Shown one piece after another: positions 1,226 to 18,001 of a stretch of 64,000 nt of DNA. The position numbers and the translations under genes were made by a program. The stretch comes from Candidatus Hydrogenedentota bacterium (GTDB taxonomy: Bacteria > Hydrogenedentota > Hydrogenedentia > Hydrogenedentales > SLHB01). Every line of letters begins with the position of its first letter. Within the stretch, counting starts at the first letter, position 1. Below the pieces are notes generated by a model. It did not search any database and was not told the origin of the DNA. It was given only the letters and a program-made list of their open reading frames with translations. The stretch lies in assembly GCA_045863335.1 (NCBI GenBank), contig BTVY01000004.1, positions 64,001-128,000 on the forward strand. Direction: 5' to 3'.

Positions 1226-2030
1226 TTAGGGCCTCTAACAAAAGCCCCTTGTGAAATTAAAAAGGGATACTGATGCAACCGCGCGCGAGAAACGCTTCGA
1301 GGATGTTTGGGCAACGTTCGTAGCGAACCGAGAGTCTTTGAAATTGGTGCATCCAGCTCAAGACAGCTCAAGACACGTTAGGCGACCCAGCGAAGAATAC
1401 CGAGGCCGCGGCCATGGTCAATGTTACGGCCGGAGGTGCGTGTTCGTATGGCTTGCCCAGGAAGTTATCACTATGGGGCTGGGAGTAAGCGCGGTCGGCA
1501 TCAGCACGAAGGGACGGCGCTTGGGACGGCCGGGTTTTTCCTTTGATGGGAGGAATCGCATCCACCAGGGGAAGCAAATTCCTCCCGTCGTGGCGATTGG
1601 CCCCGGCGATGGTGAATGTCAGAGGAATCCCCTGACCATCCGTGAGCACGTGATGTTTGTGGTTTCGAGTTTGTGCCGATCCGTGGGATTGGGGCCGGTT
1701 TTCAGCCGCCGAAAACTACGCATAAACCGGTACTGTCTACTGCATATGATTAGTCGAGTTGGTCGGACTGAACAACCAGGCGACGTGTATTTCGCCCGTT
1801 CGCTACCAGGTACCTTCGACGTGCGGAAACGCAAAGCGTCGCGAGTATACCATCTGCAACAGCAATCCAAATCCTGGGGCAATAACTCCCATGGAATTAC
1901 CGTGCGCGTAGCGATCAAGGCGCCCAATCAATACGTCGAGGCTGGTCAGCGCGGCGCATACGTGCCTTCATACATCGCCTCGTGTTCGTTTCGAGTCAGG
2001 TTTGCTCTCTACAGTATAATGGACAAGCAT
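1226..2030 (-). pseudogene. Degraded IS5-family transposase (IS402/IS427-like)
   Basis: Minus-strand fragments in different frames: RTVIPWELLPQDL, GPNPTDRHKLET, LTDGQGIPL..IAGANRHD..L, ADRAY. One IR-like end TAGGGCCTCTAACAAAA at ~1227. The other end was not recognised, so limits are approximate. Confidence 0.8.
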
Positions 2031-2104
2031 GAGTATGGGGTTGAGTTGTAGGCTTTCGGATTGGCAGTAGGAAAGTCTAGAAGGCTTCTGATTGGGAATG
2101 GGAT

Positions 2105-2491
2105 ATGCATACATTTCGTCGGAACAGGCTGTATTTTCTCGGAGAACTCGGCTTCCGTAGTTCTCCGAGAGAACGAGCTAGGAGGACAGTGGAACGCCGA
2201 TGGCAAGAGCAGAATCGCGTAGTGGATTTGTTGGTAAGGGGGGCGAGCATGGGAAACGTGATATCCGATGGAGAGCGTGTGAGCGTACGGTTTTCGGAAC
2301 ATCCGTGTGTAGATCAAAACCAACTTGTGTATATTCGGAATGGGGAGAGGAGAATTGTTCATCGGGTTTTGTTTCGACTGGGCCCGATATTTGTTGAGCA
2401 TGGTATTGCGAATGACTACCGAGGCATACATTGGACATCTTCGGCGATTGGAAATGTTGTTTCGGTCGAAAGAAGGAAAGCGGGAGTGTAG
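2105..2491 (+). CDS. Small S24/S26 peptidase-like protein without a TM anchor
   Basis: VRGASM..VI.DGERV, IVHRV and a degenerate GxxN box (EHGIAN). The stop lies 3 nt before the next ATG. Confidence 0.6.
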   Translation: MHTFRRNRLYFLGELGFRSSPRERARRTVERRWQEQNRVVDLLVRGASMGNVISDGERVSVRFSEHPCVDQNQLVYIRNGERRIVHRVLFRLGPIFVEHGIANDYRGIHWTSSAIGNVVSVERRKAGV

Positions 2492-2494
2492 ACT

Positions 2495-3592
2495 ATGCCT
2501 TGGGGCAAGGTTTCTCAGCCTCGTACCCTGTGTCTTTGTGGTACACCAGAGGAGATGGGTGCGGAGCACGGTGAATTGTTGCGTGATGAAATTCATGAGA
2601 ATATGTGTGAGTATGTACGTAGGAGTAGAGAGATCTTTGAGGTGCCGTACGAGTACCTGATTAGGAAAGTGGATGAGATCCTCCCTTTTATACCGGACCG
2701 TTTCAGTCGAGAGATCAGGGCACTCGCAGAGTCGGCGCGTGTAGACTTTAGGGAGTTGCTTGCGTTCAATTGTTTGGTGGATATAGACGCTACCTACATG
2801 CAGAATTTGTCTCACTGCTGCAACTTTGTTTTGGTTCCACCGGCGATTAGCGATAGCACAATTCATGGACGGAATTTAGACTTCCCTCATGCCGGAGTCT
2901 TACCTCGTACGGCGGTAGCGTTAGTAAGGTGTCCGGAGGATACGTCAAGATGTGAGACTATTTCGGTTGCATGGGCAGGATACGTCGGCATTTTAACTGG
3001 TTGTAATTCAATGGGAATATCGGTTGGCGAGGTTGGTGTGCCAGCGCGCGACTGTACGGCGCAGGGAGTCCCAATAAGCATTTTGATTCGTGATGCGCTT
3101 GAATCCTCCACGACCATGGATGTTTTTCACGACAAGGTGGGTAGAACCCCGCGCACGGGAGGTTATAATATTGCTGTGTGCGATGCAGTAAATATGAGTT
3201 CGTTGGCGATAGAATGCACGAGAGTTCAGTGCGAGTTTCGAAAGGCGAAAAAGGGGGTACTCGTTGTCGATGATGTATGTCTGTGCAAAAAAACTGGGCT
3301 TCACCGACTTGTTCATGCGTCAGGCGCATTTCGACACGCGCGCATGGTCCAGTTAATCTTACGTGCTTCCGATTCATTTTCATTGGACACCGCTATTCAG
3401 TGTCTAGGCGATAGGTACGATATGGCAACTGGTAGGGCTCATGGTCGAGGATATAACTGTATCTGCAATAGTCACACAATCCATAGCGTGGTTTTCACTG
3501 GTGATTCGGTGTGGATAGCTCAAGGCGTAACTCCGGCACCAACAGGTGGGTACCACAGGCTTGAACTATCTGAATTCTGGTCCCGCAGATGA
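2495..3592 (+). CDS. C45-family autoproteolytic Ntn hydrolase/acyltransferase
   Basis: GTPEEMGAEHG, predicted Cys nucleophile in SH-CCNF, IHGRNLDF, TGCNSMGISV, GVPISILIR. Confidence 0.85.
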   Translation: MPWGKVSQPRTLCLCGTPEEMGAEHGELLRDEIHENMCEYVRRSREIFEVPYEYLIRKVDEILPFIPDRFSREIRALAESARVDFRELLAFNCLVDIDATYMQNLSHCCNFVLVPPAISDSTIHGRNLDFPHAGVLPRTAVALVRCPEDTSRCETISVAWAGYVGILTGCNSMGISVGEVGVPARDCTAQGVPISILIRDALESSTTMDVFHDKVGRTPRTGGYNIAVCDAVNMSSLAIECTRVQCEFRKAKKGVLVVDDVCLCKKTGLHRLVHASGAFRHARMVQLILRASDSFSLDTAIQCLGDRYDMATGRAHGRGYNCICNSHTIHSVVFTGDSVWIAQGVTPAPTGGYHRLELSEFWSRR

Positions 3593-3764
3593 ATAGTGTT
3601 GGCTTTTTGCCTCGCTAAACTTAGGTTCTCCGCGAGTTAATTGAGCGTTACAGTGCTCGTCTTGAACTCGAGGGGACGGGCGTAGCGACCTCAACGTAGG
3701 GCACATCAAACTGTCAGACAATTACGCGCTCTCCGTAAAGCTATACTTGAACATCGGTACATGG

Positions 3765-4328
3765 CTACTGCTCGCCCCGCTCACACTCCGAAACTCTCCG
3801 CTGGTTAACGCCTAGTTTCTGGGCGAACTCCTGTTGTGTGAGCCCCTGGAGAAGCCGCGTCTGCGGGATACGCTCTGCCGGGGACTCCGGTGACGCGAAT
3901 GGGCTACCCCCGAGAAATGCGGCTATCTTGGGGATTGAGATGTAGTTCTGTCGAGAGTCCGGCTGGCGTTCCCATTTGGACACCGTGGCGGGGTCCACGC
4001 CCATGAGGTGGGCAGTTTCGTCCCAGGAGAGACCCAGGCCTTCCCGGTGGCGCCGCAGTTTCTCTCCGACCGTCCGGCCTGGAGGTCGCGGGTCATAGCT
4101 GAGGAATTCGATGACTTTGGGTAGCGCTCGGAGGTTCGGCGTCGCAGTTCCCGCCTCCCAGTTGAAGACCGAGGTCTTGTCCACCCCCAGAATCCCCGCA
4201 ACCTCCCGTTGCAGGAGGTTCAGGTCCATTCGGCGCTTGCGGATGTGGTCTCCGATGGTTTCTAATGTCTCTGGATAACCGGAAGGAGTTGGTTTTGCTG
4301 AACTTAGCGTTCGATGGCAACAAGGCAA
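3765..4328 (-). CDS. Multi-domain XRE helix-turn-helix protein (3 HTH), copy 1
   Basis: IGDHIRKRRMDLNLLQREVA..WEAG, VGEKLRRHR..WER and LLQGLTQQEFAQKLGV. Start is uncertain (TTG 4328); the frame runs into the comM junction. Confidence 0.8.
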   Translation of the reverse strand: MPCCHRTLSSAKPTPSGYPETLETIGDHIRKRRMDLNLLQREVAGILGVDKTSVFNWEAGTATPNLRALPKVIEFLSYDPRPPGRTVGEKLRRHREGLGLSWDETAHLMGVDPATVSKWERQPDSRQNYISIPKIAAFLGGSPFASPESPAERIPQTRLLQGLTQQEFAQKLGVNQRRVSECERGEQ

Positions 4329-4813
4329 CGCAACAGTGTCCCTGTGGATATCGTTCGCATCCGACCAAGTCCTGTCGCTGCTCCGTTGGCGAGATCCAAC
4401 GATACATGTCGAGGCTATCTGGGCCTCTCCTCGACCGGATCGACATCCATGTCGACGTTCCTGCGTTGACCTATGACGAGATTGCCAATCGAGCGACGAG
4501 CGGCCCAACAAGCGCGGAAGTGAGAACGACAGGGCAAGAAGCCCGAGACCGCCAACGAATTCGCTACAAAGGTCGGATAGCCTGCAACGCCAGGCTGGAT
4601 TCCGGCGCCATCAGAGAGTACTGTCAGGTAAGCAAGGAGTCCGAGCGGTTGCTAGAAAACGTCATGGATGAATTCGGCCTGAGCGCCCGTGCCTACGACA
4701 AGATCCTGCGGGTCGCCCGAACGATCGCCGATGTGGAAGGAGCAGAACATATCTCCGAAATGCATGTTGCGGAGGCGGTGCAATACCGCAGTTTAGACCG
4801 TCAATTGGTCTGA
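3787..4813. repeat. Direct repeat copy 1 (HTH + junction + comM 3')
   Basis: Collinear with 16975..18001 at a constant offset of 13,188. Segment 4253..4338 differs from 17441..17526 at only 5 of 86 nt. Confidence 0.95.
4337..4813 (+). pseudogene. comM: 3' fragment of comM/yifB (Mg-chelatase-like AAA+), copy 1
   Basis: CPCGY..C.C...IQRY..RLSGPLLDRIDI and LSARAYDKILRVARTIAD..H..EA.QYR. Everything upstream of CPCG is missing. Confidence 0.9.
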
Positions 4814-5099
4814 TTTTACCGCTGACTGGTCCAAAGTATGCAGGCCACACAGACTTGATGAAACTCCCTTTTCCGTATCAGTCTCCCACAATTTTTGCTT
4901 GACGAACGTCCGTCTTCGTGTTATACAGAAGCAGGACCAAGGGAGTCTTCGCCGGGGATTGGGTAAGCGCGACGAAGCGAGTTTAGGTCTAGTGCGGTAC
5001 GCGGGGGTTATCCTTGACACACCCACGTGGCTCATCTTGGGGAAGATGCAGCCAGTCGTCCTCCTTCCTCGTTTCCATCGCAGCACGTTCATGTAATTC

Positions 5100-6299
5100 A
5101 TGCTACGTGGAGTTTGCCCAATGTCGCGAGGAAGTATGATCTTTGAACTCCTGATGGGAACGATAGATCTCCGCCAGAATCTCGCACTGTTTTCCGAGCG
5201 ACTTTCGTCGAGTTTCCTAAGCCCACATCCTATCGGGACAGCTACTTGCCTACGAGCGCGAATTTTCGGGACACTTCTAGTGCTCGTAGCGAGCGCTGTT
5301 ACAGCCGAATCCAAATTCCCAGCCAACGAAGTGAGCTCCGGCCCCAGCTTGTTGCTATCTCAGCACGTTCTCGATTTTGGTCCAGTGGATCCGACGGGAA
5401 CCTATGAGAAGAGAATAACACTCATGAATGTGGGTTCAATAATTCTAAACCTCTTGCGCGTGGAGAGTTCATGTTTTTGCACACTCGTGGAGCGAGGGGC
5501 CGAACACATCGAACCATCGGATGCAACTGAATTCATCGTAACTCTCGATCCTCATTTGTACCCAAAGGAAGAAGTCGATACCTACATCATCATCGAATCC
5601 GATGATAGCTTAAGACCCAGACAATACATTGCTGTTCGGGCAAAAATTCAGCCTGAGTTCATTCTCGAACCCGCGGAAATAGACTTTGGTGATCTTCGTG
5701 TGGGTGAGTCTGTGACCAGCACGGTCTACGTTCGTCAAACTGGGGCACAAGTGCTCGAGGAACCGACAGTACGTGCTTCGGATACTATGGAAATTGTTGT
5801 CAAAGACGTGTCCTGTGCGCTGGGCAATGGCATGGGGAACCAAAACGCCCCGCGCGTTTATAGCCTGGACGTCGTTTTTTCGCCAACGGCATCGGCGTCA
5901 TATCTGCGAAATGAAATCGAAATCCTGACGAACTTCAATCGTGTTCCACGGGTGACCCTTCCGTATTACGCCAAAGTTCGCGGACTAACCTACTCTCTCT
6001 CGCGGTCGGTGGTACTTTTCGGCGAGAAGCGTCCCGGCGAATCTCTCGGAGCGTTTGAACTCACTTGCCCTGAGGATACTCTACTGAAAAGCGTTCACAT
6101 TGATGAGTCGGAAGTGGCGTTGCATGAGTCGCAGGTGGAATCCGAGGGCGTAACAACCTACAGAATAGAGATATTTGCGAAACCGTCTGCTGCCATCGGT
6201 GAGAAATCCGGTAAAGTTCACTTAACGCTTACCGACAATGCATTAGTAGAACACACGGAGGTGTCGTACTATGGCCTCCTGCGCCGTGCTGGAGATTAA
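5100..6299 (+). CDS. DUF1573 / tandem Ig-like domain exported protein
   Basis: LDFGPV...ITLMNVG..LNLLRVESSCFCT and a second IDFGDL..GE repeat, preceded by a hydrophobic segment. The true start is probably downstream of 5100. Confidence 0.75.
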   Translation: MLRGVCPMSRGSMIFELLMGTIDLRQNLALFSERLSSSFLSPHPIGTATCLRARIFGTLLVLVASAVTAESKFPANEVSSGPSLLLSQHVLDFGPVDPTGTYEKRITLMNVGSIILNLLRVESSCFCTLVERGAEHIEPSDATEFIVTLDPHLYPKEEVDTYIIIESDDSLRPRQYIAVRAKIQPEFILEPAEIDFGDLRVGESVTSTVYVRQTGAQVLEEPTVRASDTMEIVVKDVSCALGNGMGNQNAPRVYSLDVVFSPTASASYLRNEIEILTNFNRVPRVTLPYYAKVRGLTYSLSRSVVLFGEKRPGESLGAFELTCPEDTLLKSVHIDESEVALHESQVESEGVTTYRIEIFAKPSAAIGEKSGKVHLTLTDNALVEHTEVSYYGLLRRAGD

Positions 6300-6390
6300 G
6301 CCAATCTTACGTCGGATTTGCAGAGCAGCTTAAGCATTGGGAATAAACGAGTTTGGAATTGGATAGATTCGGTTGTAGGGAGTGCTCGCC

Positions 6391-9300
6391 ATGATAGTCG
6401 TTCTAAGAAACAAGACTTGGCTTCGATTGGTATCACTATTTACCGTAGCCACATTTCTGCCTTTCGCAGCGGGGGCATGGAATTTCATTCCCAATCAATC
6501 CTATGACGAGAAGTTGGCTTCTACGCCTTCATGGTCCGTTCTACCATGGAAAACAGCCGAGGAGATTTCAAAGGAAGACTTCCGAGAGCTTCCCTGGCAG
6601 ACCTTGGTCCGTGGCAAGTCCAGATCGACAGAGGGTATTCAGCCTCTATCTGAGGACGAACTGGAACGGTACAAGGGTGGGCAGATTCAAGACCGAGCTA
6701 GCATGCTTGATTCCGCAAACGTCCTATACGAATCTGGGCGAGTTGGCGAAGCTTGCATCTCGTACCTGGACATACTGGACAAGCACCCTCGTACGGTCGA
6801 AGCCGTGGAGGCAAATCGCAGGCTCGGCGAAGCCGCCAATCGATTGATGCAGGGCGAGTTAGATTCATCCGAAATAGCACGCTTCGAGGCGGAACTTCCT
6901 ACTTTGGAATCGCTAACCTCTATGGAAGGAAGATACACGCTTGTAGATTTTTACCGGTTCAAGGCAAGGGCAGTATCGGAAGGCGGCGATATCGGTGCCG
7001 GAGAACAATTGTACGCACTTACCCGGAAGGAAGCTGGGGAATTACTCAGGAACTTTCCGGATAACCCTCTACAGATTGACACCGCAATCATCTTCATGGA
7101 GTCCTCCAGGGCTCTTGGCCAAAAAGAAACGACCGAAGCAATCGAATTCCTGGAACGGCTCATATCAGAGTCTGAACCATGCATGAGTGAGTGGGCCGCC
7201 CGTTACGTAGCGGCCGCTCATGCACATACCGAACGCAATGCGCTGGGCAAGTCAGTCGGTCACTACCGGGCGATGATTCAACATGCAAAGCTCGGGTTCA
7301 TTGATGAAGCATTATCCGATCCCGGCGTATACCCTTGGGTGAAAGCGTATCTCGAACTGGCGCTCGCCGATGCGTATCACAATGCAGGTTCGCCTGATGA
7401 AGCATTCTCTCGATATCAGCGGATCGTCCAAAACTATTCCGGCACGGGCGAACCGGTCGAAGAAGCAGCCTACAACGTCGCGTTCTCGATTGGTTTTGGC
7501 CAGGCCCAGCCTTACGAGGGGATTCTAGAGTTTGGAAAGCTCATAGAAAGTGCCCCGGAAAGCATTTTTGCGGGCAAAGCGCTCTGGCAAATCGGTAACT
7601 TGTACCTGGCCGCAGAGGATTACGACGCAGCGTTGCGAACGTTTGGCGACGTAATGGAGAAGTATCCGGAGACCACTCTCGCGATAGCTGCGGAGCGCAG
7701 CTCGGAGTATATCCTCAACAACCTCGTTGGCAGCTACCGGGTGTCCGAAGGTTATGTGCTCGCCGATTCTGGGCTACCAACTGAAATCGAGGGCCAGCTT
7801 TGCGGCCCAATGGCTTTGCGCGCGCTGCTAGACGCAAACGGCATCAACGCATCGGTGGAGGAACTAGCCGTCGCTGCCGGGACGGACGGCGGTGGAACAA
7901 CGATGCTTGGACTTATTCGTGCCGCAGATAGTAAGGGCTTCGGGCTGCAGGGGGTGAAGGTCGCGAATGCGAGCGCGCTTGAGACGCCGTTCATAGCCTT
8001 CGTAAATGGAAATCACTTCGTTCTAGTAACGCAATTGGACAAGGATACGGTCCAATATCTAGACACCGGCACAGAAGCCAGAGTTGTGTCCCAGGCCGAA
8101 TTCGCACAAATGTGGCAGGGCCACGCCTTAACGAATGTAGGCTCAGGACTGTACGAATCCGCAATGAACACCGGCCAATTGACGGGCGCAAAGGGAGGTT
8201 CCGGGGGTGGCGGCGGCATCACTCTCAGCCCACCGGACTGTCCTAATGGCTTCATGCCTCCGTGCGGGGGAGGACCTCTTGGGGGCGGAGGCGGGGGCGC
8301 AGGCGATGTTCCGCCCAACAACGATTGCGGCGCGGATGGAGGAGATTCTTCAGGCTCACCTGGTGGCTCCAGTGGTGGTTCCGGCGGTGGCGGTGGTTCC
8401 GGCGGTGGCGGTGGTTCCGGCGGTGGCGGTGGCTCCGGCGGTGGCGGTGGTTCCGGCGGTGGCGGTGGCTCCAATCCCGGAAACGGGCCAAATGGGATAG
8501 GCGGTACCTTAGGCATTGGTTTGGGTAATGCTGGATCGGGACAGTTGGATGTTGGTCCCGGTAGCGGAAATGGACTTGGGGGTTTTGCAGCCTTCGGCGC
8601 GATTCCTTGGGGTGGCCATCCTGGTGAAATTTATATGGGCGGCGAAGGTAGCCACGGCAGCGGTCCACAACCCGGCGGTAGGGGGATGCCGCGGATACAA
8701 GGATTCCAGGGAGCCCAATATATGGTGAGCACCGATCTTGCCATCGATATCCGTGGACCCATGCATATCAAATTCCAACGCGGCTATCATAACCGGTGGG
8801 GAAAGCGCCGTTGGGAATACGTCCACAATTCCGAAGTCTGGAGTAACAATATCGGTCGATCGTGGACCCATAGCCTGAACATGTTCATTTCCGTCTCTAC
8901 GTCTACGCAGGGCGGAAAGCCGGACCACGTGATCTTCTATGATTCGGCCGGCAATCACAACTTTTACTACTATTCAAGCTCAACACTCGGTGCTGATCTT
9001 TACGAACCCAGCACAAAAAACCCTACGGATGATCAAGCCAATTACATCATCCGAAATTCTACAACGGATAGTTACACCCTCCATTTACCCCACGGAATGC
9101 AGTATGCCTTCGGTTCCCCGAGCTATTATATCGCGAGGATCGACACGGCGACTGATGTGTCGGGTAACGTGATATCGTTCGATTACGACAGTGGGGGCCA
9201 TCTAACGAAAGTTTACGGACCTTCGCCCGACACTCGATATATGTTCTTCGAGTATTCCGGCAATCAGATCACGAAGGCATCCATTAAGGACGGAACCGCG

Positions 9301-12300
9301 ACGTTGCTGAGTACGCAATATCAATACGACGCCAACTATGATCTGACGAAAGTAATTGACGTTGATGGCTCAGACATCGAATATACCTATGGAAACGACA
9401 GCCGGGATGTGGACACCGCATACATCGCTTCGTTTACGGACAAAGAAGACCGGACAACGACGTACAGTTATCTATACGATTACCATCCAGACGGTTGGGG
9501 TCTGCACCCCTACATCATCACCATCAACTATCCTGACGGTATCCAGGAGGTAATCAATCGCACACAGGGATCCGGTTATAACCGAGCGTCGGACACAGTT
9601 CAATACCAGGGTACGCTCCTGAGCAAGATCGAGATCATACCAGGACCGCAAGGGTACTACCCCCAGTTTGTGCGAATCTACACCGGCCAAGGGTTGGCGT
9701 ATGAAGAGTGGGAATTTGAGTACCACGACAACCTGAACGACAACAATACCGAAAACGACCGTGACTTAAAAGCGATTATCGATCCCCGAGGAGTTCGTGT
9801 AAACGAGTTCACTTGGACTTCGGACGGTCGCTTGGCAAGCATTAGATTTCCTGGCCAGCCCGCTTCGACGTTCGAGTATGCTACAAGTGGCCTGCACGCG
9901 ACCAAGGTCAATCATCCGGATGGGGCCTCGTCCTATTACTACTACGATTCTCAAGATAGACTCACAAAAGAAGTCTTGCCTTGGAGCGGTTCGAACGGTT
10001 ACCAGAGAACTTTCGATTCGTACGGGCAATTGACGTCTCTTGTGAATCCTCTATCCAACTCCACAACATATGCCTATGACTCTATCGGGAAAATCACCAG
10101 CGTGAAGACCGCGCTCAATGATGAGTGGCTCCTTGAATATGATGCATTGGGACATCTTACAAAACGCACGTCCCCCTTATCGCAAGTCCAACAGTTCTAT
10201 TATGCAAGCGGAGGTTGCGGCGGCTGCGGCGGGGGTGGTCTCCTAACGAAGGTCACGGACGCGGACAGTAACGACACGTTGTTTGCGTACGATGTTGTGG
10301 GTAATGTCACGAAGATTACTGCCGCGACTTTACAGGCGACGGATTTCTTTTACGATATCAATGACCGGCTCACCAAGATCACGACGCCGTCGGGAAGCGC
10401 GAACGACATGACGTTCGCGTACGATCGCTTAGGACGGTTGACGAGTCTTACGGATTTGAACGGGAAGACCGCTTCCTCTACGTACAATCATCGCGACCAA
10501 GTGCTTACGGTGAGCGACGCCGTGGGAACGGTTACATTTACGTATGACTCATCGGGGAACCTGTCCACTGTCACGGATGCATTGAGTCATACGTGGGATT
10601 ACGACTACGATGGAAACAGCTATCTCACATCCGTTACAGACCCCGTGGCCAAGTATGTCAAGTATTTCTATGACGGTTATGGGCGGTTGACCAAGGTTGG
10701 GGCCGGTTCGAGTGGGAGCTTCGACCCAACAGAGTATTTCTACAACTCGTCCACTGGTGTCATGACGAAGGTGCGGTATACGAGCGGTGCGCAGTCACAC
10801 GAGGCGACATACGAGTTTGACAACATGCTACGTGTTACGCGGCTCAAGGACTGGATCGACGCGACGAACGGCATCCAGTACGCGTACGACGCGGCGAACC
10901 GGCTGACGCGGATTACGGATTACGACAGCTCTACTCTGGATTACGCATATGACGCCGCCGGCCGGGTAACGTCTCAGAACGACTATCACAGCAACACGAC
11001 GACATATACGTATACCGTGCGCAATCAACTTAGTACGATCACGGCGCCGGGCAGCAAGGTCTGGGATTTCGATTACAACACGCTCGGCCAGCCGACGGGA
11101 TATGCCCATCCCAACGGGGTCACCACGGCGTACGAATACGATTCGCGGCACCGGATGACGAAGATCGCGCATATGAACGGACAGACGACGCTCGATAGCT
11201 TTGACTACGCGTTAGACACGGGCAGCCTGATCTCGAGCGTGACCCACGCGGATAGCTCCTTTTGGGACTACGCCTATGACGATCGCTATCGCCTCACCAG
11301 CGCCGTACGCAGCAACGCCAACGAGACCATTGAGGCCACGTATGCCTACACCTACGATGCGGGCGACAACCTGCTCACAAAGGTCGAGCCCTTCGAGGAC
11401 GATTTCAATGATGGGAATTACACGGGCTGGTCGGTGTGGTCCGGGTCGTGGAGCGCGGCGAACAATTATCTCCGGATGACGCCGGGGTCGGCGGGGACCA
11501 TCGCGCAGAATGCGAATACGGATAACGATCTGGAATTGCGTTTCTCCTACGTCTGCAACGACACGAGCAACAGCGGGTACACGTTGACGGTGAGTCCGCG
11601 CTACGCATCGAATGGGGACCGCATCTATCTAAACATCCTGCCGGGGTCGGTGAACCTGGCGCAGCGCGTGGGCGGCGTGTGGTCGTCGCTGGACTCCCAG
11701 GCTCTCACCAGCACGCAGGGCGTCGAGTACACCATCCGCGTCGTGTGCGACGGGTCGGACGTGCAGGTCTTCCGGACCGCTCCCGGCGAACTCGAACAGG
11801 AGGTCCTCTCCACCTCCAGTTGCACCGTTGCGAGCACGAACTACATCTCCTTCACCCCCAGCCTGAACGCCGACTACAGCATCGACAACATCCGCATCCT
11901 CTCCGACGACCTCAGCAACACGACCACCTTCGCCGTCAACAACGCCAACGAACTCACCTCCATGACGGACTACAACGGCTCCACCACCTTCGCCTTCGAC
12001 GCCTGGGGCCGCATGACCTCGAAGGCGCGTGGCAGTTATTCGGCGACGTATGGTTACAAGTACGGCCAGATGTTGTGTAATGTGGCTAGCAACTGGCCGA
12101 GCGAAGGGGATGTGACGTACAATTACGGCGGCAACCTGCAACGGCGGGAACGGACCGTGGATAGTACGACGGTCAGGTACAACTGGAATGGAGGCTTTGG
12201 CCTCATCAGCGAGGAAGACGACTCTGGAAATCTGACGCGCACCTACACCGGCCGTCTTGCGGACGTGAACGGGAGCAACCCGGCTACGGGAACAAGCCGG

Positions 12301-12945
12301 TACTACCATGGTGACAATCTTGGCTCCGCCCGGCGAGTTACGGATGGTTCGGCAGCAACATTGGCCGCCAACGAATACACGCCGTACGGCTCTAGCTTTC
12401 AGTCTTTCGGCTCGGCGTCAACATGGGCCTATGGCATGTTAGCAGACGATTGGCCTTCCGGGACACTATTCGCGCCTTTCCGGAATTACCTACCGGAGAC
12501 TGGACGTTGGTCGTGCCAAGATCCGCTCGATATGATTGACGGCACAAATATGTTCGCGTATGTGCAGGGGAACCCAATCAACGCTGTCGATCCCCTGGGG
12601 CTTGGTCTCTTCAGATATTTGTCTTGCATGTTATTCGGTACGCCACCAAACAGCAAGAGTCCGCCTGATGGCGTCCTTAATCCTTTCTCGCCACAATTGA
12701 TGGGCCCCGAGGCAGAAGGTGCATACCAAGTCGCCAAACGGAGTATGAACGTCGGTAAGAAAGCGACCGGCAGAGCAGCGGCACTTATGGTAGGCAAGGC
12801 CATGGCCCGATATGTTGCATGGCCTGTTAGTGCTGCCGTTACGGCGGCTTCTCACGTTGGTTGTGATGAATCACTAGAGGATCAGCCAATGGCGGGAATC
12901 GTTCGTATTGATTTTGGAGAGTACCTGGGTCTCCTAGGGGGTTAA
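6391..12945 (+). CDS. Rhs/YD-repeat polymorphic toxin with signal peptide, TPRs and a C39 peptidase domain
   Basis: Signal peptide (..FLPFAAGA); TPR-like helices; C39 motifs LCGP (Cys 7801), GTTMLGL and NHFV (His 8014), YLD; Gly-rich linker; many YD repeats; core end PETGRW..DP...GTNMFAYVQGNPINAVDPLGL; 113-aa tip. Confidence 0.92.
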   Translation: MIVVLRNKTWLRLVSLFTVATFLPFAAGAWNFIPNQSYDEKLASTPSWSVLPWKTAEEISKEDFRELPWQTLVRGKSRSTEGIQPLSEDELERYKGGQIQDRASMLDSANVLYESGRVGEACISYLDILDKHPRTVEAVEANRRLGEAANRLMQGELDSSEIARFEAELPTLESLTSMEGRYTLVDFYRFKARAVSEGGDIGAGEQLYALTRKEAGELLRNFPDNPLQIDTAIIFMESSRALGQKETTEAIEFLERLISESEPCMSEWAARYVAAAHAHTERNALGKSVGHYRAMIQHAKLGFIDEALSDPGVYPWVKAYLELALADAYHNAGSPDEAFSRYQRIVQNYSGTGEPVEEAAYNVAFSIGFGQAQPYEGILEFGKLIESAPESIFAGKALWQIGNLYLAAEDYDAALRTFGDVMEKYPETTLAIAAERSSEYILNNLVGSYRVSEGYVLADSGLPTEIEGQLCGPMALRALLDANGINASVEELAVAAGTDGGGTTMLGLIRAADSKGFGLQGVKVANASALETPFIAFVNGNHFVLVTQLDKDTVQYLDTGTEARVVSQAEFAQMWQGHALTNVGSGLYESAMNTGQLTGAKGGSGGGGGITLSPPDCPNGFMPPCGGGPLGGGGGGAGDVPPNNDCGADGGDSSGSPGGSSGGSGGGGGSGGGGGSGGGGGSGGGGGSGGGGGSNPGNGPNGIGGTLGIGLGNAGSGQLDVGPGSGNGLGGFAAFGAIPWGGHPGEIYMGGEGSHGSGPQPGGRGMPRIQGFQGAQYMVSTDLAIDIRGPMHIKFQRGYHNRWGKRRWEYVHNSEVWSNNIGRSWTHSLNMFISVSTSTQGGKPDHVIFYDSAGNHNFYYYSSSTLGADLYEPSTKNPTDDQANYIIRNSTTDSYTLHLPHGMQYAFGSPSYYIARIDTATDVSGNVISFDYDSGGHLTKVYGPSPDTRYMFFEYSGNQITKASIKDGTATLLSTQYQYDANYDLTKVIDVDGSDIEYTYGNDSRDVDTAYIASFTDKEDRTTTYSYLYDYHPDGWGLHPYIITINYPDGIQEVINRTQGSGYNRASDTVQYQGTLLSKIEIIPGPQGYYPQFVRIYTGQGLAYEEWEFEYHDNLNDNNTENDRDLKAIIDPRGVRVNEFTWTSDGRLASIRFPGQPASTFEYATSGLHATKVNHPDGASSYYYYDSQDRLTKEVLPWSGSNGYQRTFDSYGQLTSLVNPLSNSTTYAYDSIGKITSVKTALNDEWLLEYDALGHLTKRTSPLSQVQQFYYASGGCGGCGGGGLLTKVTDADSNDTLFAYDVVGNVTKITAATLQATDFFYDINDRLTKITTPSGSANDMTFAYDRLGRLTSLTDLNGKTASSTYNHRDQVLTVSDAVGTVTFTYDSSGNLSTVTDALSHTWDYDYDGNSYLTSVTDPVAKYVKYFYDGYGRLTKVGAGSSGSFDPTEYFYNSSTGVMTKVRYTSGAQSHEATYEFDNMLRVTRLKDWIDATNGIQYAYDAANRLTRITDYDSSTLDYAYDAAGRVTSQNDYHSNTTTYTYTVRNQLSTITAPGSKVWDFDYNTLGQPTGYAHPNGVTTAYEYDSRHRMTKIAHMNGQTTLDSFDYALDTGSLISSVTHADSSFWDYAYDDRYRLTSAVRSNANETIEATYAYTYDAGDNLLTKVEPFEDDFNDGNYTGWSVWSGSWSAANNYLRMTPGSAGTIAQNANTDNDLELRFSYVCNDTSNSGYTLTVSPRYASNGDRIYLNILPGSVNLAQRVGGVWSSLDSQALTSTQGVEYTIRVVCDGSDVQVFRTAPGELEQEVLSTSSCTVASTNYISFTPSLNADYSIDNIRILSDDLSNTTTFAVNNANELTSMTDYNGSTTFAFDAWGRMTSKARGSYSATYGYKYGQMLCNVASNWPSEGDVTYNYGGNLQRRERTVDSTTVRYNWNGGFGLISEEDDSGNLTRTYTGRLADVNGSNPATGTSRYYHGDNLGSARRVTDGSAATLAANEYTPYGSSFQSFGSASTWAYGMLADDWPSGTLFAPFRNYLPETGRWSCQDPLDMIDGTNMFAYVQGNPINAVDPLGLGLFRYLSCMLFGTPPNSKSPPDGVLNPFSPQLMGPEAEGAYQVAKRSMNVGKKATGRAAALMVGKAMARYVAWPVSAAVTAASHVGCDESLEDQPMAGIVRIDFGEYLGLLGG
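8380..8472 (+). repeat. Coding tandem repeat, 5 x 18 bp (SGGGGG)
   Basis: TCCGGCGGTGGCGGTGG(T/C) five times, then TCC. Confidence 0.95.
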
Positions 12946-13023
12946 AACTGCTGTAGATTGGAAATGCAAATGCGTATGTTGATTGAAGGCGTGTCGAGAT
13001 AACCTTACACAGCACGAGGTAGA

Positions 13024-13497
13024 GTGGCTAGAGAGAATCTCAATCCTGATGTGCTAGCGAACCCGTTCGAGCGTACGCGCATGATCTGGGTTTGGATTCT
13101 TACGTCCGTCACCGTCGTGGAGGTTTTGCGTGTTTGGGCGAGCTTCCAGGCCGTTCCTGCCAACCAAACGTCGAGCGACCGCGCTTCGTTCGTGACAGAT
13201 ATGATGAGTTTTCTAACGTGGGGCGGTACCCTGTTTGCAATGGTGGCGGTGACGGTCATTCTGGTCTTCGCAGTGCGGGTGATTGTTCATCCCAGTACGC
13301 TAATACTTGGAAGAATTGCACTGCTATGTGTTCTAGTAGCTCTTGGCGGCGAGTTTCCTGCGTTCTTCCTCCGCGACGCTATTGGCATATCGATGGTATT
13401 GGATTTGGTGCGACTATTTGCGGGTTTGTTGGGCTTGGCAGCGGCGAAGTTTTCGCATTCAGTGTCCAATTCAGATCACCTAACATCCGAGAGTTGA
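13024..13497 (+). CDS. Four-TM membrane protein, candidate Rhs immunity protein
   Basis: Four hydrophobic stretches; directly downstream of and co-oriented with the rhs gene; GAGG upstream of GTG. Confidence 0.6.
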   Translation: MARENLNPDVLANPFERTRMIWVWILTSVTVVEVLRVWASFQAVPANQTSSDRASFVTDMMSFLTWGGTLFAMVAVTVILVFAVRVIVHPSTLILGRIALLCVLVALGGEFPAFFLRDAIGISMVLDLVRLFAGLLGLAAAKFSHSVSNSDHLTSES

Positions 13498-13952
13498 CTG
13501 CGTTACTGTGTCCGGTAAGCCCGGGTTAACATGAGTACAGAATTAGAGACGTGAAGCGCAACGAATAGATGATTGCTGGCGTGAGTCGATGGGTGATATT
13601 GGTCTCGCGGTATTCGTTCAGTGCGACGACGAGGTTTGGACGGTGGCGTGGTACACCGCGGATACGAGCACGTTCGTCACAAACTCTTTCTGTGGCGGTT
13701 TGGCGCTGGTGACCGGGCATCACGGATAAGGGTGGTGCGCCCCTGACCAGTGTGTGCATAGCTAGTACTGGGTCCGTTGACTTTGCGAGTTTATGAAGTG
13801 CGGATTTGGAGAATCCCAATCGGTTCGGGACTATTGATGGTTTGAGTGATGCCGCGCTCGTCGAGCGAGGCAGTACGAATGGGATTCAGGCCTTCGGTGT
13901 GGCGCGTCCGCATTCGAAGGTTACGCCAAAGGCCGAAGCGAGCGTGCTTCGC

Positions 13953-16490
13953 TCAGGGGACAGTGGGCACGTCGACGCCCGGTTTTGGGATCTCGGCCGT
14001 TGGGATCGACGGCGGCACGCCCGGAAGGTCCAGCATGAGATCGCTGGGCATAAGCGGAGCGTTCGGGTCGTTCATCGGTGACCCGCCTGCTTGCAGGTCC
14101 GCGATGAGCCGTTGCAGTTCCGGCTGATTGGCATCGATGGATAGACTTCGCGCGAAGTACCGGTGCGCCATGGCGGGTTGGCGTTTGTCGTTGAGGTAGA
14201 TCATGCCCAGTTCGCGGTAGATGCGGGCTTTGTCTCTCGGTATCACGCTCGGCCGCGTGATACCTGGCGACGCAGGCGACTTCGCTTCGCTGAAGTCGCC
14301 GGGAAAGGTGTCCATCCGCTCCAATTGCGCTATCGCCTCGTCGATACGGCCCTGCTCTTTCAGGCAGGTGAAGGCCAGCCAATTGGCCTCGGGTTCCAAG
14401 GGGTCCTGCTTTAGCAGCTGTTCGAACAGGGGCAACGCCTCGCGGTGCTGGCCGGTCTGGACATAGACCTTGCCGAGGTTCCGCAGCGACGTGCCGTACT
14501 CCGGGTCCGCCTCTAACGCCTGCGTGTAGTAGCGCTCCGCAGATTCCAGTTGCCCATACTCTGCGCAGACACTGCCGAGGTTGTTCAGCGTCTTCTTGCC
14601 GCCCTCGCCAATGTGGAGTGCCGTGTCGAAGGCCACCATGGCATGCTCTGTGTCTCCCTCATGGATAAACGTCCTACCTTGCGAGAAGTGGTAGTCCGCA
14701 AGGATCATTTGGGCGGTGAGTTCGCCACGCGTGTCGGATTCGTCCAGTGTGTGCCAAGTGTACTCCGCCCAGTAGTCACGCTCCGGCGGAGTTTCTCCGT
14801 CGCGCATGACGCGGTATAGGAGCCCGGCATTGACCATCTGCGCGCCCGGTACGCCCGGCAACGGCCGCTTCTTCGTGAAGTACACGGGCCGGTCTGGATT
14901 CTGCGTGATGATCCAGTCCTCGATGCCCTGCTCTTCCGCTTCCGTGGGGATCTTGCGGAAGCGGTTGCGTAGGTCCTCCGGCATGTCCGCGTACAGGTGT
15001 TCCTCGGGGTAGCCGTACTTGTTGGCGATGGTGACATCGGGCCGGAGTCCTTCCACCACCTGAAGGTAGATCACCGGGAAGGTCGCATGGTCCGCCGTGG
15101 GGAAGTAGACAGCGTTCTTATCAATGGTTTCGAGGACGTTCCGGCCGTAGTCGTAGGCGAAGTAGTAGTCGCCCTTGTCCACAAAGGACCGGTTCATGGC
15201 GAGGGGGAAGGCGACGACGATGACTGACACCACCGTGACCATGAGCGTCCGCCCGAGGCCGCGTTTTCCGATGTTCGTGGCGAGAGAGGGACAGACCCCG
15301 TGTTTCGCTCCGAAGACTCCGCGAAAGACGGGGTCAGTCCCCATCGTGCGCATCGTGCGGCTGAGCAAGTCGATGGCGCCGCCGATGAAGATTCCGGCCA
15401 TCATGTAGACGGGAATCCAGAAGACATTGTTTACCCAGATCGCGAGGGGGTCTATGGCGAAGTTGTTGACCAGCATGACCGCGAAGAGGACGACGGCCGT
15501 GAGGACGGCCAGGAAGGCCGTGCGATGCCGGTCGCGACGCCAGAGGGCGTAGACTCCCACGGGCGGCACCCAAGCCAGCCAAGGTGTGAACTCCCGGAGG
15601 TAAAGCCGGAGGAACACGCCGCATTGCTGGAAGAAGAGTCCCAGGCTGCGGGGGTGCTCGGTGAACATGAACTTGTACTGGGCGCGGGTGACCACGTCCT
15701 TGAAATTCTCCCAAGTCTCCGGGTTGCCCCAGTCCATGGGCGGGTCGGCAGCGGATCGGATGGGCAGGTAGAGGTAGACGGACAGGCCGAGCAGGCAGAG
15801 TCCGGCCATTCCGAGGTAGACCGGCCATTGCCGCCAGGACTGGCGGTCGTTGAACAAGATGAACCCGGCGAAGACGACGCCGAGAAGTTGCATCGTGCTG
15901 TGATTGGTGAGGCTGAGGCCGTAGACGAAGGCGAAGAGGAGCAGCAGGCGCGGCTGCCGGGACTCGTACCACAGGAACAGCAGCAACACGCACAGAGCGA
16001 TGAAGAAGGTGTTCAGCGAATACACCTCGGCGATGACGCTCTGCTCCCAGAACTCCCGCGAAAACGCGAAAGCCAGCGCCCCGGTCACGGCGGCGACCCG
16101 ATTCCGCGTCAGCCGGAGGATGATCAGACACACCAGCCCGACTGTCACCGCCGCGAAGAACGCGGACATGAAGTTCACGCGCCACGCCACGGTTCCAAAG
16201 GGGATATACGTGAACAAATGCCCCAACAGACACCAGATTGGATACCCCGGCGGATGGGCAATCCCCAACGTATACGCCGCCGTGACCAACTCCCCGCTGT
16301 CTTCCCCCGTGACCGTCGGCCCCAGCGTCGGCACATACACGCCCAGCGCGACCAAGGAAGCGCCCAGGGCTGTCAAATAATCTCCGGGAGTGAAGCGATG
16401 TCCACCCAGTCCCTGAGTCGAGTTTGCGCTGTTCTGTGGTCGCAGGACATGATTTCCGAACGTAGTCCGTTCCTGTTTCTTCTTCTTCAC
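13953..16490 (-). CDS. DUF2723 (TMEM260-like GT-C) membrane protein with C-terminal TPRs
   Basis: PTVTGEDSGEL..A..LGIAHPPGYP, AEVYSLN, LTNH, YLYLPIRS..PPMDWGNP; C-terminal TPRs. Confidence 0.9.
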   Translation of the reverse strand: MKKKKQERTTFGNHVLRPQNSANSTQGLGGHRFTPGDYLTALGASLVALGVYVPTLGPTVTGEDSGELVTAAYTLGIAHPPGYPIWCLLGHLFTYIPFGTVAWRVNFMSAFFAAVTVGLVCLIILRLTRNRVAAVTGALAFAFSREFWEQSVIAEVYSLNTFFIALCVLLLFLWYESRQPRLLLLFAFVYGLSLTNHSTMQLLGVVFAGFILFNDRQSWRQWPVYLGMAGLCLLGLSVYLYLPIRSAADPPMDWGNPETWENFKDVVTRAQYKFMFTEHPRSLGLFFQQCGVFLRLYLREFTPWLAWVPPVGVYALWRRDRHRTAFLAVLTAVVLFAVMLVNNFAIDPLAIWVNNVFWIPVYMMAGIFIGGAIDLLSRTMRTMGTDPVFRGVFGAKHGVCPSLATNIGKRGLGRTLMVTVVSVIVVAFPLAMNRSFVDKGDYYFAYDYGRNVLETIDKNAVYFPTADHATFPVIYLQVVEGLRPDVTIANKYGYPEEHLYADMPEDLRNRFRKIPTEAEEQGIEDWIITQNPDRPVYFTKKRPLPGVPGAQMVNAGLLYRVMRDGETPPERDYWAEYTWHTLDESDTRGELTAQMILADYHFSQGRTFIHEGDTEHAMVAFDTALHIGEGGKKTLNNLGSVCAEYGQLESAERYYTQALEADPEYGTSLRNLGKVYVQTGQHREALPLFEQLLKQDPLEPEANWLAFTCLKEQGRIDEAIAQLERMDTFPGDFSEAKSPASPGITRPSVIPRDKARIYRELGMIYLNDKRQPAMAHRYFARSLSIDANQPELQRLIADLQAGGSPMNDPNAPLMPSDLMLDLPGVPPSIPTAEIPKPGVDVPTVP
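14239..14300. repeat. Intragenic double hairpin
   Basis: GGTATCACGC-N6-GCGTGATACC (14239-14264) and GGCGACTTC-N8-GAAGTCGCC (14275-14300). Confidence 0.85.
15288..15341. repeat. Intragenic palindromic element (GGGACAGACCCC type)
   Basis: 21-bp arms GGGACAGACCCCGTGTTTCGC / GCGAAAGACGGGGTCAGTCCC with 2 mismatches and a 12-nt loop. Confidence 0.85.
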
Positions 16491-16552
16491 CTCATATCCT
16501 TATCATCTCTACAAAACGGAGAAAACGGTGAGGAACCGAGTAGTCGGAACAA

Positions 16553-16804
16553 TCACGAGAGCCATTCCGCAATGCCGCGTTCAGTAATCTCCAGACTGGG
16601 GTAGTGGCCTTCGTGATCAACTATTCGCACGTAACCTTGAGATTTAAGTTCTTCAACTGCCTTCTCCACGTCTCCAGAACTCCACTTTGCGAATTTATTC
16701 CCAATGAAAATGTTACCTTCGGTTAAAGGGGGAAACATGCCGTTCATATCTCTGTAGTAATCCTGTACGTGGCGCTTGATTTCTTCTATGTCTAGTCTGT
16801 TCAC
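16553..16804 (-). CDS. Small hypothetical protein, possibly winged helix
   Basis: AT-rich ORF; GGAGA before GTG at 16804 (alternative ATG 16870); VEKAVEELKSQGYV..LEITERG resembles a wHTH wing. Confidence 0.6.
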   Translation of the reverse strand: MNRLDIEEIKRHVQDYYRDMNGMFPPLTEGNIFIGNKFAKWSSGDVEKAVEELKSQGYVRIVDHEGHYPSLEITERGIAEWLS

Positions 16805-16946
16805 ATTAGTTCTCCATTCTAGGTCTAGTACCAATGCCCTAAGTCTACCGCAGAGCGCGGGCTTAAACATAGCCCCATTTATCTCACTGGGGGCTCCCTA
16901 CTACCGTCGATTTAGGCTGATTCCGACCTGCTCAATGCGTTTCGCT

Positions 16947-17516
16947 TTAAAAGTCCGCACGTCCCAGTTCCAATTCCGAAACTCTTCGTTGATCTATGCC
17001 CAACTCCTCGGCGAACGCACTTTGCGTGAGTCCCTGAAGTAATCGCTCCTGCCTAAGGCGCTCCGCAGAAGATCCGGGCGGTGGGAACGGGTTATACCCC
17101 AGGAATGCGGCTATCTTGGGAATCGAAATATGGTTCTGCCTGGAGTCCGGCTGGCGTTCCCATTTGGACACCGTAGCTGGGTCCACGGTCATGGCCGTGG
17201 CCGCTTCAGCCCAGGACATACCCAGGCCTTCCCGGTGACGGCGCAGTCTTTCTCCGACCGTTCGGCCCAGCGGACGGGGATCATAACCAAGGAACCGGAT
17301 TACTTTGGGCAGTACTCGGAGGTTCGGCGTGGCGGTTCCTGCCTCCCAATTGAAGACTGAGGCCTTATTTACTTCCAGAATCCCCGCAACCTCCCGTTGT
17401 AGGAGGTTCAGGTCCATTCTGCGCTTGCGGATATGGTCCCCGATGGTTTCTAATGTCTCTGGATAACCGGAAGGAATTGGTTTTGTTGAACTTAGCTCTC
17501 GATGACAACAAGGCAA
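16947..17516 (-). CDS. Multi-domain XRE HTH protein (3 HTH), copy 2
   Basis: Paralogue of 3765..4328 with the same three HTH units. Confidence 0.8.
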   Translation of the reverse strand: MPCCHRELSSTKPIPSGYPETLETIGDHIRKRRMDLNLLQREVAGILEVNKASVFNWEAGTATPNLRVLPKVIRFLGYDPRPLGRTVGERLRRHREGLGMSWAEAATAMTVDPATVSKWERQPDSRQNHISIPKIAAFLGYNPFPPPGSSAERLRQERLLQGLTQSAFAEELGIDQRRVSELELGRADF

Positions 17517-18001
17517 CGCAACAGTGCCCTTGCGGGTGTCGCACCGATCCCAAACGGCAGTGCCGGTGCAGCGTGGGCGAGGTGCAGCGTTACATGGCGC
17601 GGTTGTCCGGGCCCTTGCTGGACCGCATCGACATCCACGTCGATGTGCCCGCGCTGAGTTTCGAGGAACTCATCGACCGCCGGCCCAGCGGCCCCACGAG
17701 CGCGGAGGTGCGCGCGGAGGTTCAGGCCGCCCGCGACCGTCAGCGGGCCCGCTACGGCGGCGCGTACACCTGCAACGCCCACCTCGATTCCCGCGCCATC
17801 CGCGATCACTGCGTCATCGCCGACAGTGCCAACGCCCTTCTCGAACAGGCCATCAACCAACTCGGCTTCAGCGCCCGCGCCTACGACAAAGTCCTCCGCG
17901 TCGCGCGAACCCTCGCCGATCTCGACGCCTCCGAATCCATCGCCGACAACCACGTGTCCGAGGCGATCCAGTATCGGAGTCTGGATAGGCAGATGTTCTG
18001 A
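16975..18001. repeat. Direct repeat copy 2 (HTH + junction + comM 3')
   Basis: See copy 1. Confidence 0.95.
17525..18001 (+). pseudogene. comM: 3' fragment of comM/yifB, copy 2 (host-like codon usage)
   Basis: CPCG..RLSGPLLDRIDI..FSARAYDKVLRVARTLAD..EAIQYR; high GC3 like the core genes. Confidence 0.9.

Follow-up and report, generated by a model that had tools for sequence, protein, structure and literature searches.

A composite island in comM of a Candidatus Hydrogenedentota genome, probably inserted by a serine recombinase whose gene is divided by its own attachment site

Two repeated units at the right end of an island

We examined a 64,000-nucleotide stretch of DNA (the window, positions 64001-128000 of contig C4) from G000, a Candidatus Hydrogenedentota genome that is available as a 6.75-Mb metagenome-assembled draft of 105 contigs. 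Near the left end of the window, a minus-strand open reading frame (ORF) with three helix-turn-helix (HTH) stretches of the XRE type adjoins a plus-strand 3' end of comM, and the same unit recurs further on. Judging from the sequence, this region would be the right end of a 71.6-kb composite genomic island inside the native comM of G000. The reading that we favour, and which as a whole we consider probable, is that a large serine recombinase (LSR) inserted the island, that the gene of this recombinase is split by its own attachment site (attP), and that the HTH|comM-3' units are the right-hand attachment sites (attR). The relevant features are as follows.

C4:9879-81524, outer composite element (71,646 bp)
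C4:9879-68336, inner element, E1 (58,458 bp)
C4:8820-9878, native comM 5' fragment, ending in ...VAMNP and then a stop
C4:9853-11373, minus strand, LSR-A, a 506-aa ORF directly after the native comM 5' fragment, ~58 kb upstream of the window
C4:48569-50194, element-borne full-length comM, a foreign allele
C4:68325-68807 and C4:81513-81995, comM 3' fragments, copy 1 and copy 2
Window 1-3764, right-hand cargo tail of E1 (from Pfam matches), continuous with the upstream island
Window 3765-4328, minus strand, HTH1, the triple XRE-HTH ORF at the inner attR, with three HTH_3 stretches; very probably the C-terminal 187 codons of the split LSR gene
Window 4313-4334, P arm of the inner attR, GATGGCAACAAGGCAACGCAAC; the P' arm beside the LSR (C4:9883-9904) is its exact reverse complement
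Window 4337-4338, TG core dinucleotide of the inner attR
Window 4337-4813, plus strand, comM 3' fragment copy 1, an allele of the element-borne comM clade
Window 16947-17516, minus strand, HTH2, the triple XRE-HTH ORF at the outer attR, with three HTH_3 stretches; very probably the C-terminal part of the split LSR gene
Window 17501-17522, P arm of the outer attR, with 1 mismatch to the inner P arm
Window 17525-17526, TG core dinucleotide of the outer attR
Window 17525-18001, plus strand, comM 3' end copy 2, apparently native and the partner of the 5' fragment at C4:8820-9878

A search of the whole genome returned four pieces of comM, all of them on C4. Within the window, a repeat search gave two direct-repeat families (3775-4074/16963-17262 and 4581-4623/17769-17811), both with a start-to-start spacing of 13,188 bp, and the two 1.05-kb units aligned without internal indels. 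The ungapped identity between the units was 72% over 1049 nt (73.6% over 1036 nt by BLASTN), and reached 92-94% at window 4215-4314, immediately to the left of the junction; no exact run common to both was longer than 36 nt. The plus-strand pieces of both units match positions 155-206 of the 207 of the Pfam domain Mg_chelatase, together with Mg_chelatase_C, and both start at the TG of the first Cys codon in the CPCG motif (window 4337 and 17525). We observed that the two comM pieces are different alleles: they share 63% protein identity, and the GC content at third codon positions (GC3) is 0.63 in copy 1 and 0.85 in copy 2. Between the junctions lie five ORFs of note, including one small ORF. 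The six longest and two shorter ORFs there contained no recombinase domain in Pfam, and no PF00589 or PF07508 match was found between the two junctions.

Much of the original prediction for this DNA thus stood. It had described one unit occurring twice, 13,188 bp apart and with no net indel, which the repeat families and the gap-free alignment bear out. It had also placed the start of both comM pieces at the same CPCG codon, and the breakpoint is constant; of the two junction coordinates that it gave, 4337 was correct and 17524 was off by one (17525). The difference between the two alleles, the lack of a recombinase between the junctions and the anatomy of the unit (comM 3' end, cargo, HTH; now seen in the Pfam content of both units) were likewise confirmed, and bases 1-4336 are, as it had proposed, the tail of a neighbouring element, given their continuity with the upstream island. 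The prediction had recommended inspecting the sequence left of the window, and there, on the same contig, lie the comM 5' half and a serine recombinase.

The recombinase LSR-A and its very probably severed C-terminus

The product of C4:9853-11373 matches the domains Resolvase (PF00239, 2.5e-34), Recombinase (PF07508, 2.1e-19) and Zn-ribbon (PF13408, 5.5e-4, a weak match below the cut-off), and because of these domains we take it to be a large serine recombinase. The 22-nt arm beside it has only three copies with at most one mismatch in the 6.75-Mb genome, namely at the left end and at both right ends of the island. The dinucleotide TG is common to the left-hand attachment site (attL) and both attR sites of G000, as it is in the genomes G097, G099, G063, G082 and G044. 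With TG as the crossover, the native flanks join into an uninterrupted NPCPCG reading frame. There was no target duplication at the junctions; the 5' fragment ends in ...NP, and the 3' fragment begins with CPCG. Inverted-repeat attP half-sites, a 2-bp core and the lack of a target duplication together form the signature of LSR insertion, and the insertion point would be the TG of the first Cys codon in the NPCPCG motif of the native comM.

We also considered a tyrosine integrase as the mobilizing enzyme. This was rejected, as there was no PF00589 match inside C4:9879-81524. The sole PF00589 match on C4 (8.4e-51, in a 305-aa frame) lies on the minus strand at window 47278-47784 (C4:111278-111784), 29 kb past the island; this tyrosine recombinase is possibly of the Xer type and has no link to the island.

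When the DNA left of the right-junction TG was joined by script to the DNA from the left-junction TG onward, the LSR-A frame ran into the HTH frame, giving 690 aa with HTH2 and 688 aa with HTH1. An open frame from LSR to HTH was present in all six junction pairs, which came from five genomes (G000, G097, G099, G063 and G082), and the LSRs of the genomes used are 64-77% identical to LSR-A. Natural contiguous proteins of the same build also exist. One of them, P0008 (702 aa), shares 76% identity with LSR-A over residues 2-491, where the alignment stops exactly at the crossover (...ELMAT(K/R)QRNF), and its remainder is 62% identical to the HTH ORF over 98% of the length of that ORF. P0009, P0010 and P0014 are also contiguous LSR-HTH proteins, and locus L081 has a contiguous 658-aa open LSR-HTH frame with an intact palindromic site. 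In a library of 1.84 billion proteins, 17 of the 150 best representatives matched across the junction in one stretch, and 12 of these extend from residue 7 or earlier to residue 603 or beyond.

We further examined an AlphaFold model of P0008 (16 contiguous homologues, mean pLDDT 81). In the model, a canonical LSR body that includes a long coiled coil (residues 343-446) is followed by a low-confidence linker at residues 477-497 (pLDDT <50) and then by the HTH helices. The residues encoded by attP are this linker between the LSR body and the HTH helices. The two arms encode the peptides MATRQRNF and VALPCCH, and the conserved N-terminal peptide of the HTH ORF is one that a recombination arm encodes. 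Between HTH1 and HTH2 the dN/dS ratio was 0.17, and dS was 0.18 in the first 33 codons as against 0.77-2.7 elsewhere. This collapse of dS points to a constraint at the DNA level, acting at the arm on top of the coding constraint.

The in-frame joints and the contiguous natural proteins lead us to conclude that the terminal HTH ORF is very probably the severed C-terminus (about the last third) of the recombinase, with attP lying within the recombinase ORF. As attP would stand inside the ORF of its own enzyme, between the LSR body and the array of three XRE-HTH stretches, integration would cut the recombinase gene in two. In the integrated state, the left half consists of 498 LSR codons followed by 8 codons read from antisense comM, and it lies beside the comM 5' half; the right half, the 'HTH gene', comprises the final ~190 codons and adjoins the comM 3' half. 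On excision, a recombinase gene of ~690 aa would be re-formed. We also scanned metagenome contigs for the intact palindromic attP, and none of the 46 stretches found was flanked by an LSR end and an HTH start; one of them had an HTH start, and these matches are at chance level.

Alleles of comM and the stacked units

Against the intact comM of the congener G105, the native 5' fragment shows 99% aa identity (over 349 columns) and copy 2 shows 98%. From these values copy 2 would be the native comM 3' end, the host allele, in line with the original view that copy 2 is host-like and copy 1 is not. Copy 1 has 92% aa identity to the element-borne comM at C4:48569-50194 and is its sister (SH-aLRT 100). 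At the DNA level the two are 87% identical, and the homology begins exactly at the core TG and stops at the stop codon. Their dN/dS was 0.08, indicating that they diverged as working genes. Since copy 1 falls in the foreign, element-carried comM clade, it appears to mark an older junction, at which an element-borne comM was once used as the target.

Inside the element, the full-length comM of the foreign clade points in the same direction as the host gene that was interrupted. Such a gene was found 0.3-17.5 kb from the HTH end in G000, G063, G082 and G099, and was absent in G097. In G063, which belongs to another family, the element-borne comM groups with the element genes of family f1 and apart from the fragments of its own host. 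Restoration of the gene in G000 by homologous recombination of the native 5' fragment with the element-borne comM was considered and rejected, since the fragment is 99% native and has only ~68% DNA identity to the element-borne gene. We also noted that the element-borne gene reads NSCPCG where the host gene reads NPCPCG, so that the B-side half-site differs just left of the core. Self-targeting could be lower as a result, although a gene of this clade has evidently served as a target once (copy 1).

We looked for the same arrangement in a set of 135 genomes of the phylum. HTH homologues were present in 10 of them and LSR-A homologues in 7, all within the same 10. In 5 of the 7 loci, the LSR adjoins a comM 5' fragment whose last residue is 386/387; the exceptions are G036, which has no such adjacency, and G044, whose contig is a fragment. 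Among the nine other genomes, the HTH ORF adjoins a comM 3' fragment in six; G036 and G119 lack this arrangement, and the contig of G047 stops at that point. G063 has its two junctions on a single contig, ~57.6 kb apart. Across phyla, we took the best 80 of 339 stretches encoding relatives of the HTH part among all species representatives; their hosts include Eisenbacteria, Acidobacteriota, Verrucomicrobiota, Bacteroidota, Gemmatimonadota, Chloroflexota, Bifidobacteriaceae and others. The HTH ORF adjoins a comM 3' fragment in 57 of these 80 loci, and 44 of the 57 fragments begin at residues 378-380. The link between HTH and comM 3' end that had been proposed from the single genome therefore holds elsewhere. 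Of the remaining loci, one has a contiguous LSR-HTH gene, three have too little flank, and 19 have no comM within reach; in some of these 19, the arm and TG are followed by other DNA. The acidobacterial metagenome-assembled loci L088, L129 and L118 have a common non-comM sequence directly after the arm and TG, which suggests, from the sequence, a second conserved target for this recombinase family. With P0008 as the query, none of 158 phage and none of 33 plasmid records covered at least 80% of the protein (the best identities were ~30%), and among 43 pattern matches in viral contigs of IMG/VR none was confirmed as a close relative.

More than one comM 3' fragment was present in 9 of the 80 loci. 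In G044, two and a half units follow one another with a 1.7-kb period. For five genomes of other phyla, we counted the HTH units against the LSR|comM-5' junctions.

G135, 5 HTH units to 1 junction
G136, 4 to 1
G137, 2 to 1
G138, at least 4 to 1
G139, 1 to 0

Some of the stacks in other phyla lie on contigs of 100 kb to 1.3 Mb. The pile-up of units behind comM is a real, recurrent pattern, and the stacked array that the original prediction had described is in this respect confirmed.

The inventory of attachment sites in G000 is one attL, two attR (in direct orientation) and one LSR-A gene. By its sequence, each HTH|comM-3' unit would be an attR, made up of the arm, TG and a remnant of the target. 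Each attR calls for one past event of attP with the target site (attB), and hence for one attL per event; one attL remains. To account for this, E1 (58.5 kb) would have integrated into a comM copy carried by a related resident element, which would leave the inner attR in foreign comM. Two routes could then lead to the present island. The inner attL may have recombined with the outer attR of the resident, giving a circle that carried the right-hand module of the resident and integrated into the native comM. Alternatively, two directly repeated LSR genes may have recombined in situ, with loss of the left part of the resident. Either route would leave a recombinase-less right-hand module (comM 3' end, cargo, HTH), here of 13,188 bp and with an RHS toxin locus. 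Both are compatible with native flanks around a foreign inner 3' piece, and the present data do not favour one over the other. The anatomy also predicts alternative excisions: one of 58.5 kb would leave a hybrid restored comM and the 13.2-kb module, while one of 71.6 kb would restore the native gene. We regard this account of stack formation, taken as a whole, as evenly balanced between right and wrong.

Several observations weigh against the favoured reading or parts of it. Nested integration should have left copy 1 with a counterpart, namely a foreign comM 5' fragment adjoining another gene of the LSR-A type, but G000 contains none, and the step itself is inferred from one allele relationship. 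A full-length element-borne comM is carried by four of the five Hydrogenedentota elements (not G097) and was found in none of the five genomes of other phyla (G135-G139), several of which have stacks. Some inner HTH units adjoin non-comM DNA directly after TG; G136 has three inner HTH units, and the two examined (L095 and L099) adjoin unrelated DNA. Stacks without an element-borne comM and inner units at non-comM DNA indicate that nested integration into comM is not the sole route. Some contiguous LSR-HTH genes lie on large contigs (206 kb for P0009 and 348 kb for L081), from which it follows that the intact gene is not always a free circle. No sigma-70-like promoter was detected upstream of either HTH ORF, with a scan model that may not fit this phylum. 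Finally, no circular form, empty site or hybrid restored comM was seen in Logan contigs, which break at the repeat. A loose end at 4337 (run X2) was the paralogous full-length comM (C4:49.7 kb) aligned on copy 1 and not an excision product, and runs X3 and X4 gave short pieces of the native comM 3' end only.

These points have to be set beside the rival explanations. That the island is an assembly artefact, with two strains or organisms joined at the repeat unit, is barely credible, although G000 is a metagenome-assembled draft in 105 contigs and, in the probable source run, the Logan contigs end at both units, with no listed piece bridging them. The original prediction had itself raised a chimeric assembly, and such a join is unlikely because a shared run of 36 nt and an identity of 72% are too little to mislead an assembler. 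The word depth of long contigs in the probable source run also stayed even, at 16-21, from the E1 tail through the module into the host flank (with higher values in some bins, where several contigs were summed), and comparable stacks occur in independent assemblies from other phyla. We give almost as little credence to the view that the HTH ORF is an independent XRE-type regulator at the end of the element, the frame continuity and the fused proteins being coincidental or secondary fusions. The HTH ORFs are intact and under purifying selection, a TTG codon inside the arm could start translation, and sr1WO prophages in the Mg chelatase gene are described with separate single-domain 3' HTH_XRE genes (PMC9203015). 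Against this view stand the frame that is open in six of six junction pairs from five diverged genomes, the LSR-A alignment of P0008 that stops at the crossover and resumes in the HTH ORF, the 17 of 150 representatives that span the junction, and the N-terminal peptide encoded by the arm.

Two further explanations concern the stack. The original prediction took each unit (comM 3' end, cargo, HTH) as an autonomous integrase-less cassette, which integrates as a circle into CPCG, is mobilized in trans and restores comM, in the manner of an integron. The unit anatomy is indeed constant and stacks recur; HTH units are more numerous than the LSR|comM-5' junctions in G000 and in four of the five genomes from other phyla; if E1 were excised through attL and the inner attR, a restored hybrid comM would remain, with a cassette downstream; and in G099 a full-length comM is followed, after 273 bp, by an HTH|comM-3' unit. 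We nevertheless consider this improbable. The label 'integrase-less' does not hold if the HTH ORF is the C-terminus of the LSR, whose N-terminal 498 codons are found at the opposite end of the island (C4:9853-11373). Nor is comM restored in G000: the native gene is split between C4:8820-9878 and window 17525-18001, its 5' half adjoins the LSR, and no comM 5' part stands in front of either unit. A closed HTH|comM-3' circle would carry an attR-type site, the units being bounded by LSR attR sites, and recombination of such a site with attB is not among the known LSR reactions. The predicted joint of a 13.2-kb circle (4337/17525) was not seen in Logan contigs, a weak point since these contigs drop rare forms. 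The other explanation replaces the stacking step only. Here E2 entered the native comM, E1 entered the comM of E2, and a homologous LSR x LSR deletion in the host would have removed the left part of E2 together with the foreign comM 5' half. It agrees with both flanks being native (99% and 98% to G105) around an inner 3' piece of the element clade, and with the one LSR-A-type gene and the one comM 5' fragment that are left, and it needs only canonical attP x attB events and one RecA-type deletion. It would, however, leave a chimeric LSR, and the stacks of four and five units (G138 and G135) would need the same precise loss several times; on present data it is also not separable from the route by composite transfer. 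We therefore hold it to be possible but unlikely. The composite island inserted by an LSR whose gene is split by attP remains the reading that we prefer.

Known systems, wider meaning and cargo

From its sequence, the island would be an LSR integrative element of the comM-targeting kind, sharing a principle with the SSV-type integrases without being a member of their family. In the survey of Durrant et al. 2022 (PMC10083194), the Mg-chelatase/comM target accounts for 12.4% of the predicted site-specific LSRs and is the one that they use most often. In the sr1WO group of Wolbachia phage WO, the recombinase adjoins one piece of the chelatase gene, and HTH_XRE genes stand at the far end (PMC9203015). 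The elements in these two sources resemble the present island in having an LSR with Resolvase, Recombinase and Zn-ribbon domains and a conservative insertion inside the comM ORF. They differ in that an attP inside the recombinase ORF, or an HTH gene that is its C-terminus, is not stated in the available parts of either source (PMC10083194, PMC9203015). Among the matches listed for P0008, one was a WO record, covering residues 1-323 of the protein only, at 29% identity.

SSV-type integrases target tRNA genes. Those of SSV1, pTN3 and pT26-2 are 'suicidal', in that their own ORF contains the attachment site, so that the gene is broken up on integration and made whole again on excision (PMC8371274). 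LSR-A follows the same principle, with a recombination site within its own ORF. The SSV-type enzymes are, however, archaeal tyrosine recombinases, whereas LSR-A is a bacterial serine recombinase with a protein-coding target motif and relatives in hosts of many phyla. The N-terminal fragment of LSR-A keeps every canonical LSR domain, and it therefore need not be 'suicidal'. According to a 2021 review, self-disrupting integrases are exclusive to archaea (PMC8371274). In the literature searched, which was thin in subscription journals and did not include supplements, no serine recombinase was described as being split by its own attP.

Mycobacteriophages of clusters G, N and P have attP in the repressor gene, and integration alters the C-terminus of the repressor and couples integration to regulation (Broussard et al. 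2013; reviewed in PMC9262239). The likeness is an attP inside the gene of a DNA-binding protein; the difference is that there the repressor is split, by a tyrosine integrase with a tRNA attB, while here the recombinase itself would be split.

Composite or tandem islands built by site-specific accretion are also familiar from the SCC composite islands at rlmH and from the accretion of ICE and CIME elements in streptococci. As in those systems, directly oriented att-type sites delimit modules after one target gene, one module carries the recombinase, and alternative site pairs could, by the analysis of the comM island, excise different subsets. The recombinases and targets are different, and the repeats there are short att/DR repeats, whereas the modules of the comM island end with ~570 bp of recombinase coding sequence and start with an orphan comM 3' piece of ~480 bp or another target remnant. 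The AbaR/Tn6022 islands of Acinetobacter, which are Tn7-like transposons that make a target-site duplication, share with the present island the use of comM as an insertion hotspot. In the comM island there is an LSR at the junction and no duplication, and the flanks join into an intact comM frame; no search aimed at Tn7-like genes was made for this comparison. The island differs from an integron array in having no PF00589 match and in units that are bounded by LSR attR sites; attC was not searched for with a model.

LSRs are under development as genome-integration tools. A more far-reaching reading is that bacteria have a wide class of comM-targeting serine integrases with attP in their own ORF, in which integration removes a C-terminal triple-HTH part and excision restores it. 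This is tentative, and we would put it at somewhat less than an even chance. If it is true, the split would be a built-in switch, with the full-length enzyme only on the free circle and a truncated enzyme plus an orphan HTH ORF in the integrated state, and the archaeal 'suicidal' integrases would have their first counterpart among bacterial serine recombinases. As any attL could pair with any downstream attR, the system would then act as a ratchet that stacks recombinase-less cargo modules behind comM, the modules carrying an RHS toxin locus here and defence genes elsewhere. The stacking of right-hand modules would thereby give a testable account of how large islands grow behind comM. A complete replacement comM on some of the elements hints at how the cost of losing the target gene might be avoided. 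LSRs of this class that were catalogued from integrated copies would be without ~190 C-terminal residues; if a widespread subset is split by integration, tool sequences would be truncated and the native enzyme would have an extra DNA-binding array. The self-disrupting principle would extend from archaeal tyrosine recombinases, as described in the 2021 review (PMC8371274), to bacterial serine recombinases.

The remaining genes of the E1 tail and of the module are listed below.

Window 112-1218, GDSL lipase in the E1 tail (Pfam)
Window 2495-3592, AAT/C45-like protein in the E1 tail (Pfam)
Window 5100-6299, plus strand, DUF1573/Ig-like protein, module cargo
Window 6382-12945, plus strand, 2187-aa RHS-repeat protein with an internal C39 peptidase domain and TPR
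Window 13953-16490, minus strand, TMEM260/PMT-like glycosyltransferase with TPR, module cargo

The RHS gene has a Gly/Ser-rich 9-nt tandem repeat at window 8356-8490. Just downstream of it is a 157-aa ORF (window 13024-13497) that had no Pfam match and could be an immunity gene for the RHS protein.

Upstream of the window, E1 has regions rich in defence genes (C4:12369-15510, 24161-25354, 26706-28817 and 30417-31265). These include a SIR2-HerA pair (PADLOC E-values 6e-113 and 4.9e-156), a TIR effector (PycTIR/CAP12-like), a CapP-like M78 peptidase, a trio of Multiubiquitin, an E1-like protein (ThiF/DUF6791) and DUF6527, and a PD-(D/E)XK/Cas4-like nuclease beside a SWIM protein. TraG/VirD4-like ATPases are encoded at C4:17010-20138 and 20715-21926.

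A second LSR in E1, LSR-B (C4:40766-42328, 520 aa), has an intact gene, is 23% identical to LSR-A and is unrelated to it. Its last 43 codons, with ~50-100 nt of downstream sequence, occur as three orphan copies on the same strand nearby (C4:37646-37774, 39182-39310 and 26362-26430), with 74%, 49% and 70% aa identity, and all of them begin at the same residue (DPYRGR...). These copies may be a second case of stacked recombinase-end remnants. An LSR-B-like gene is also present in the element of G063. In the low-GC cargo of E1, the ORFs 52320-53585 and 54649-55848, neither of which has a Pfam match, have their 5' ends within a perfect 610-bp direct duplication (C4:52342-52951 and 54647-55256).

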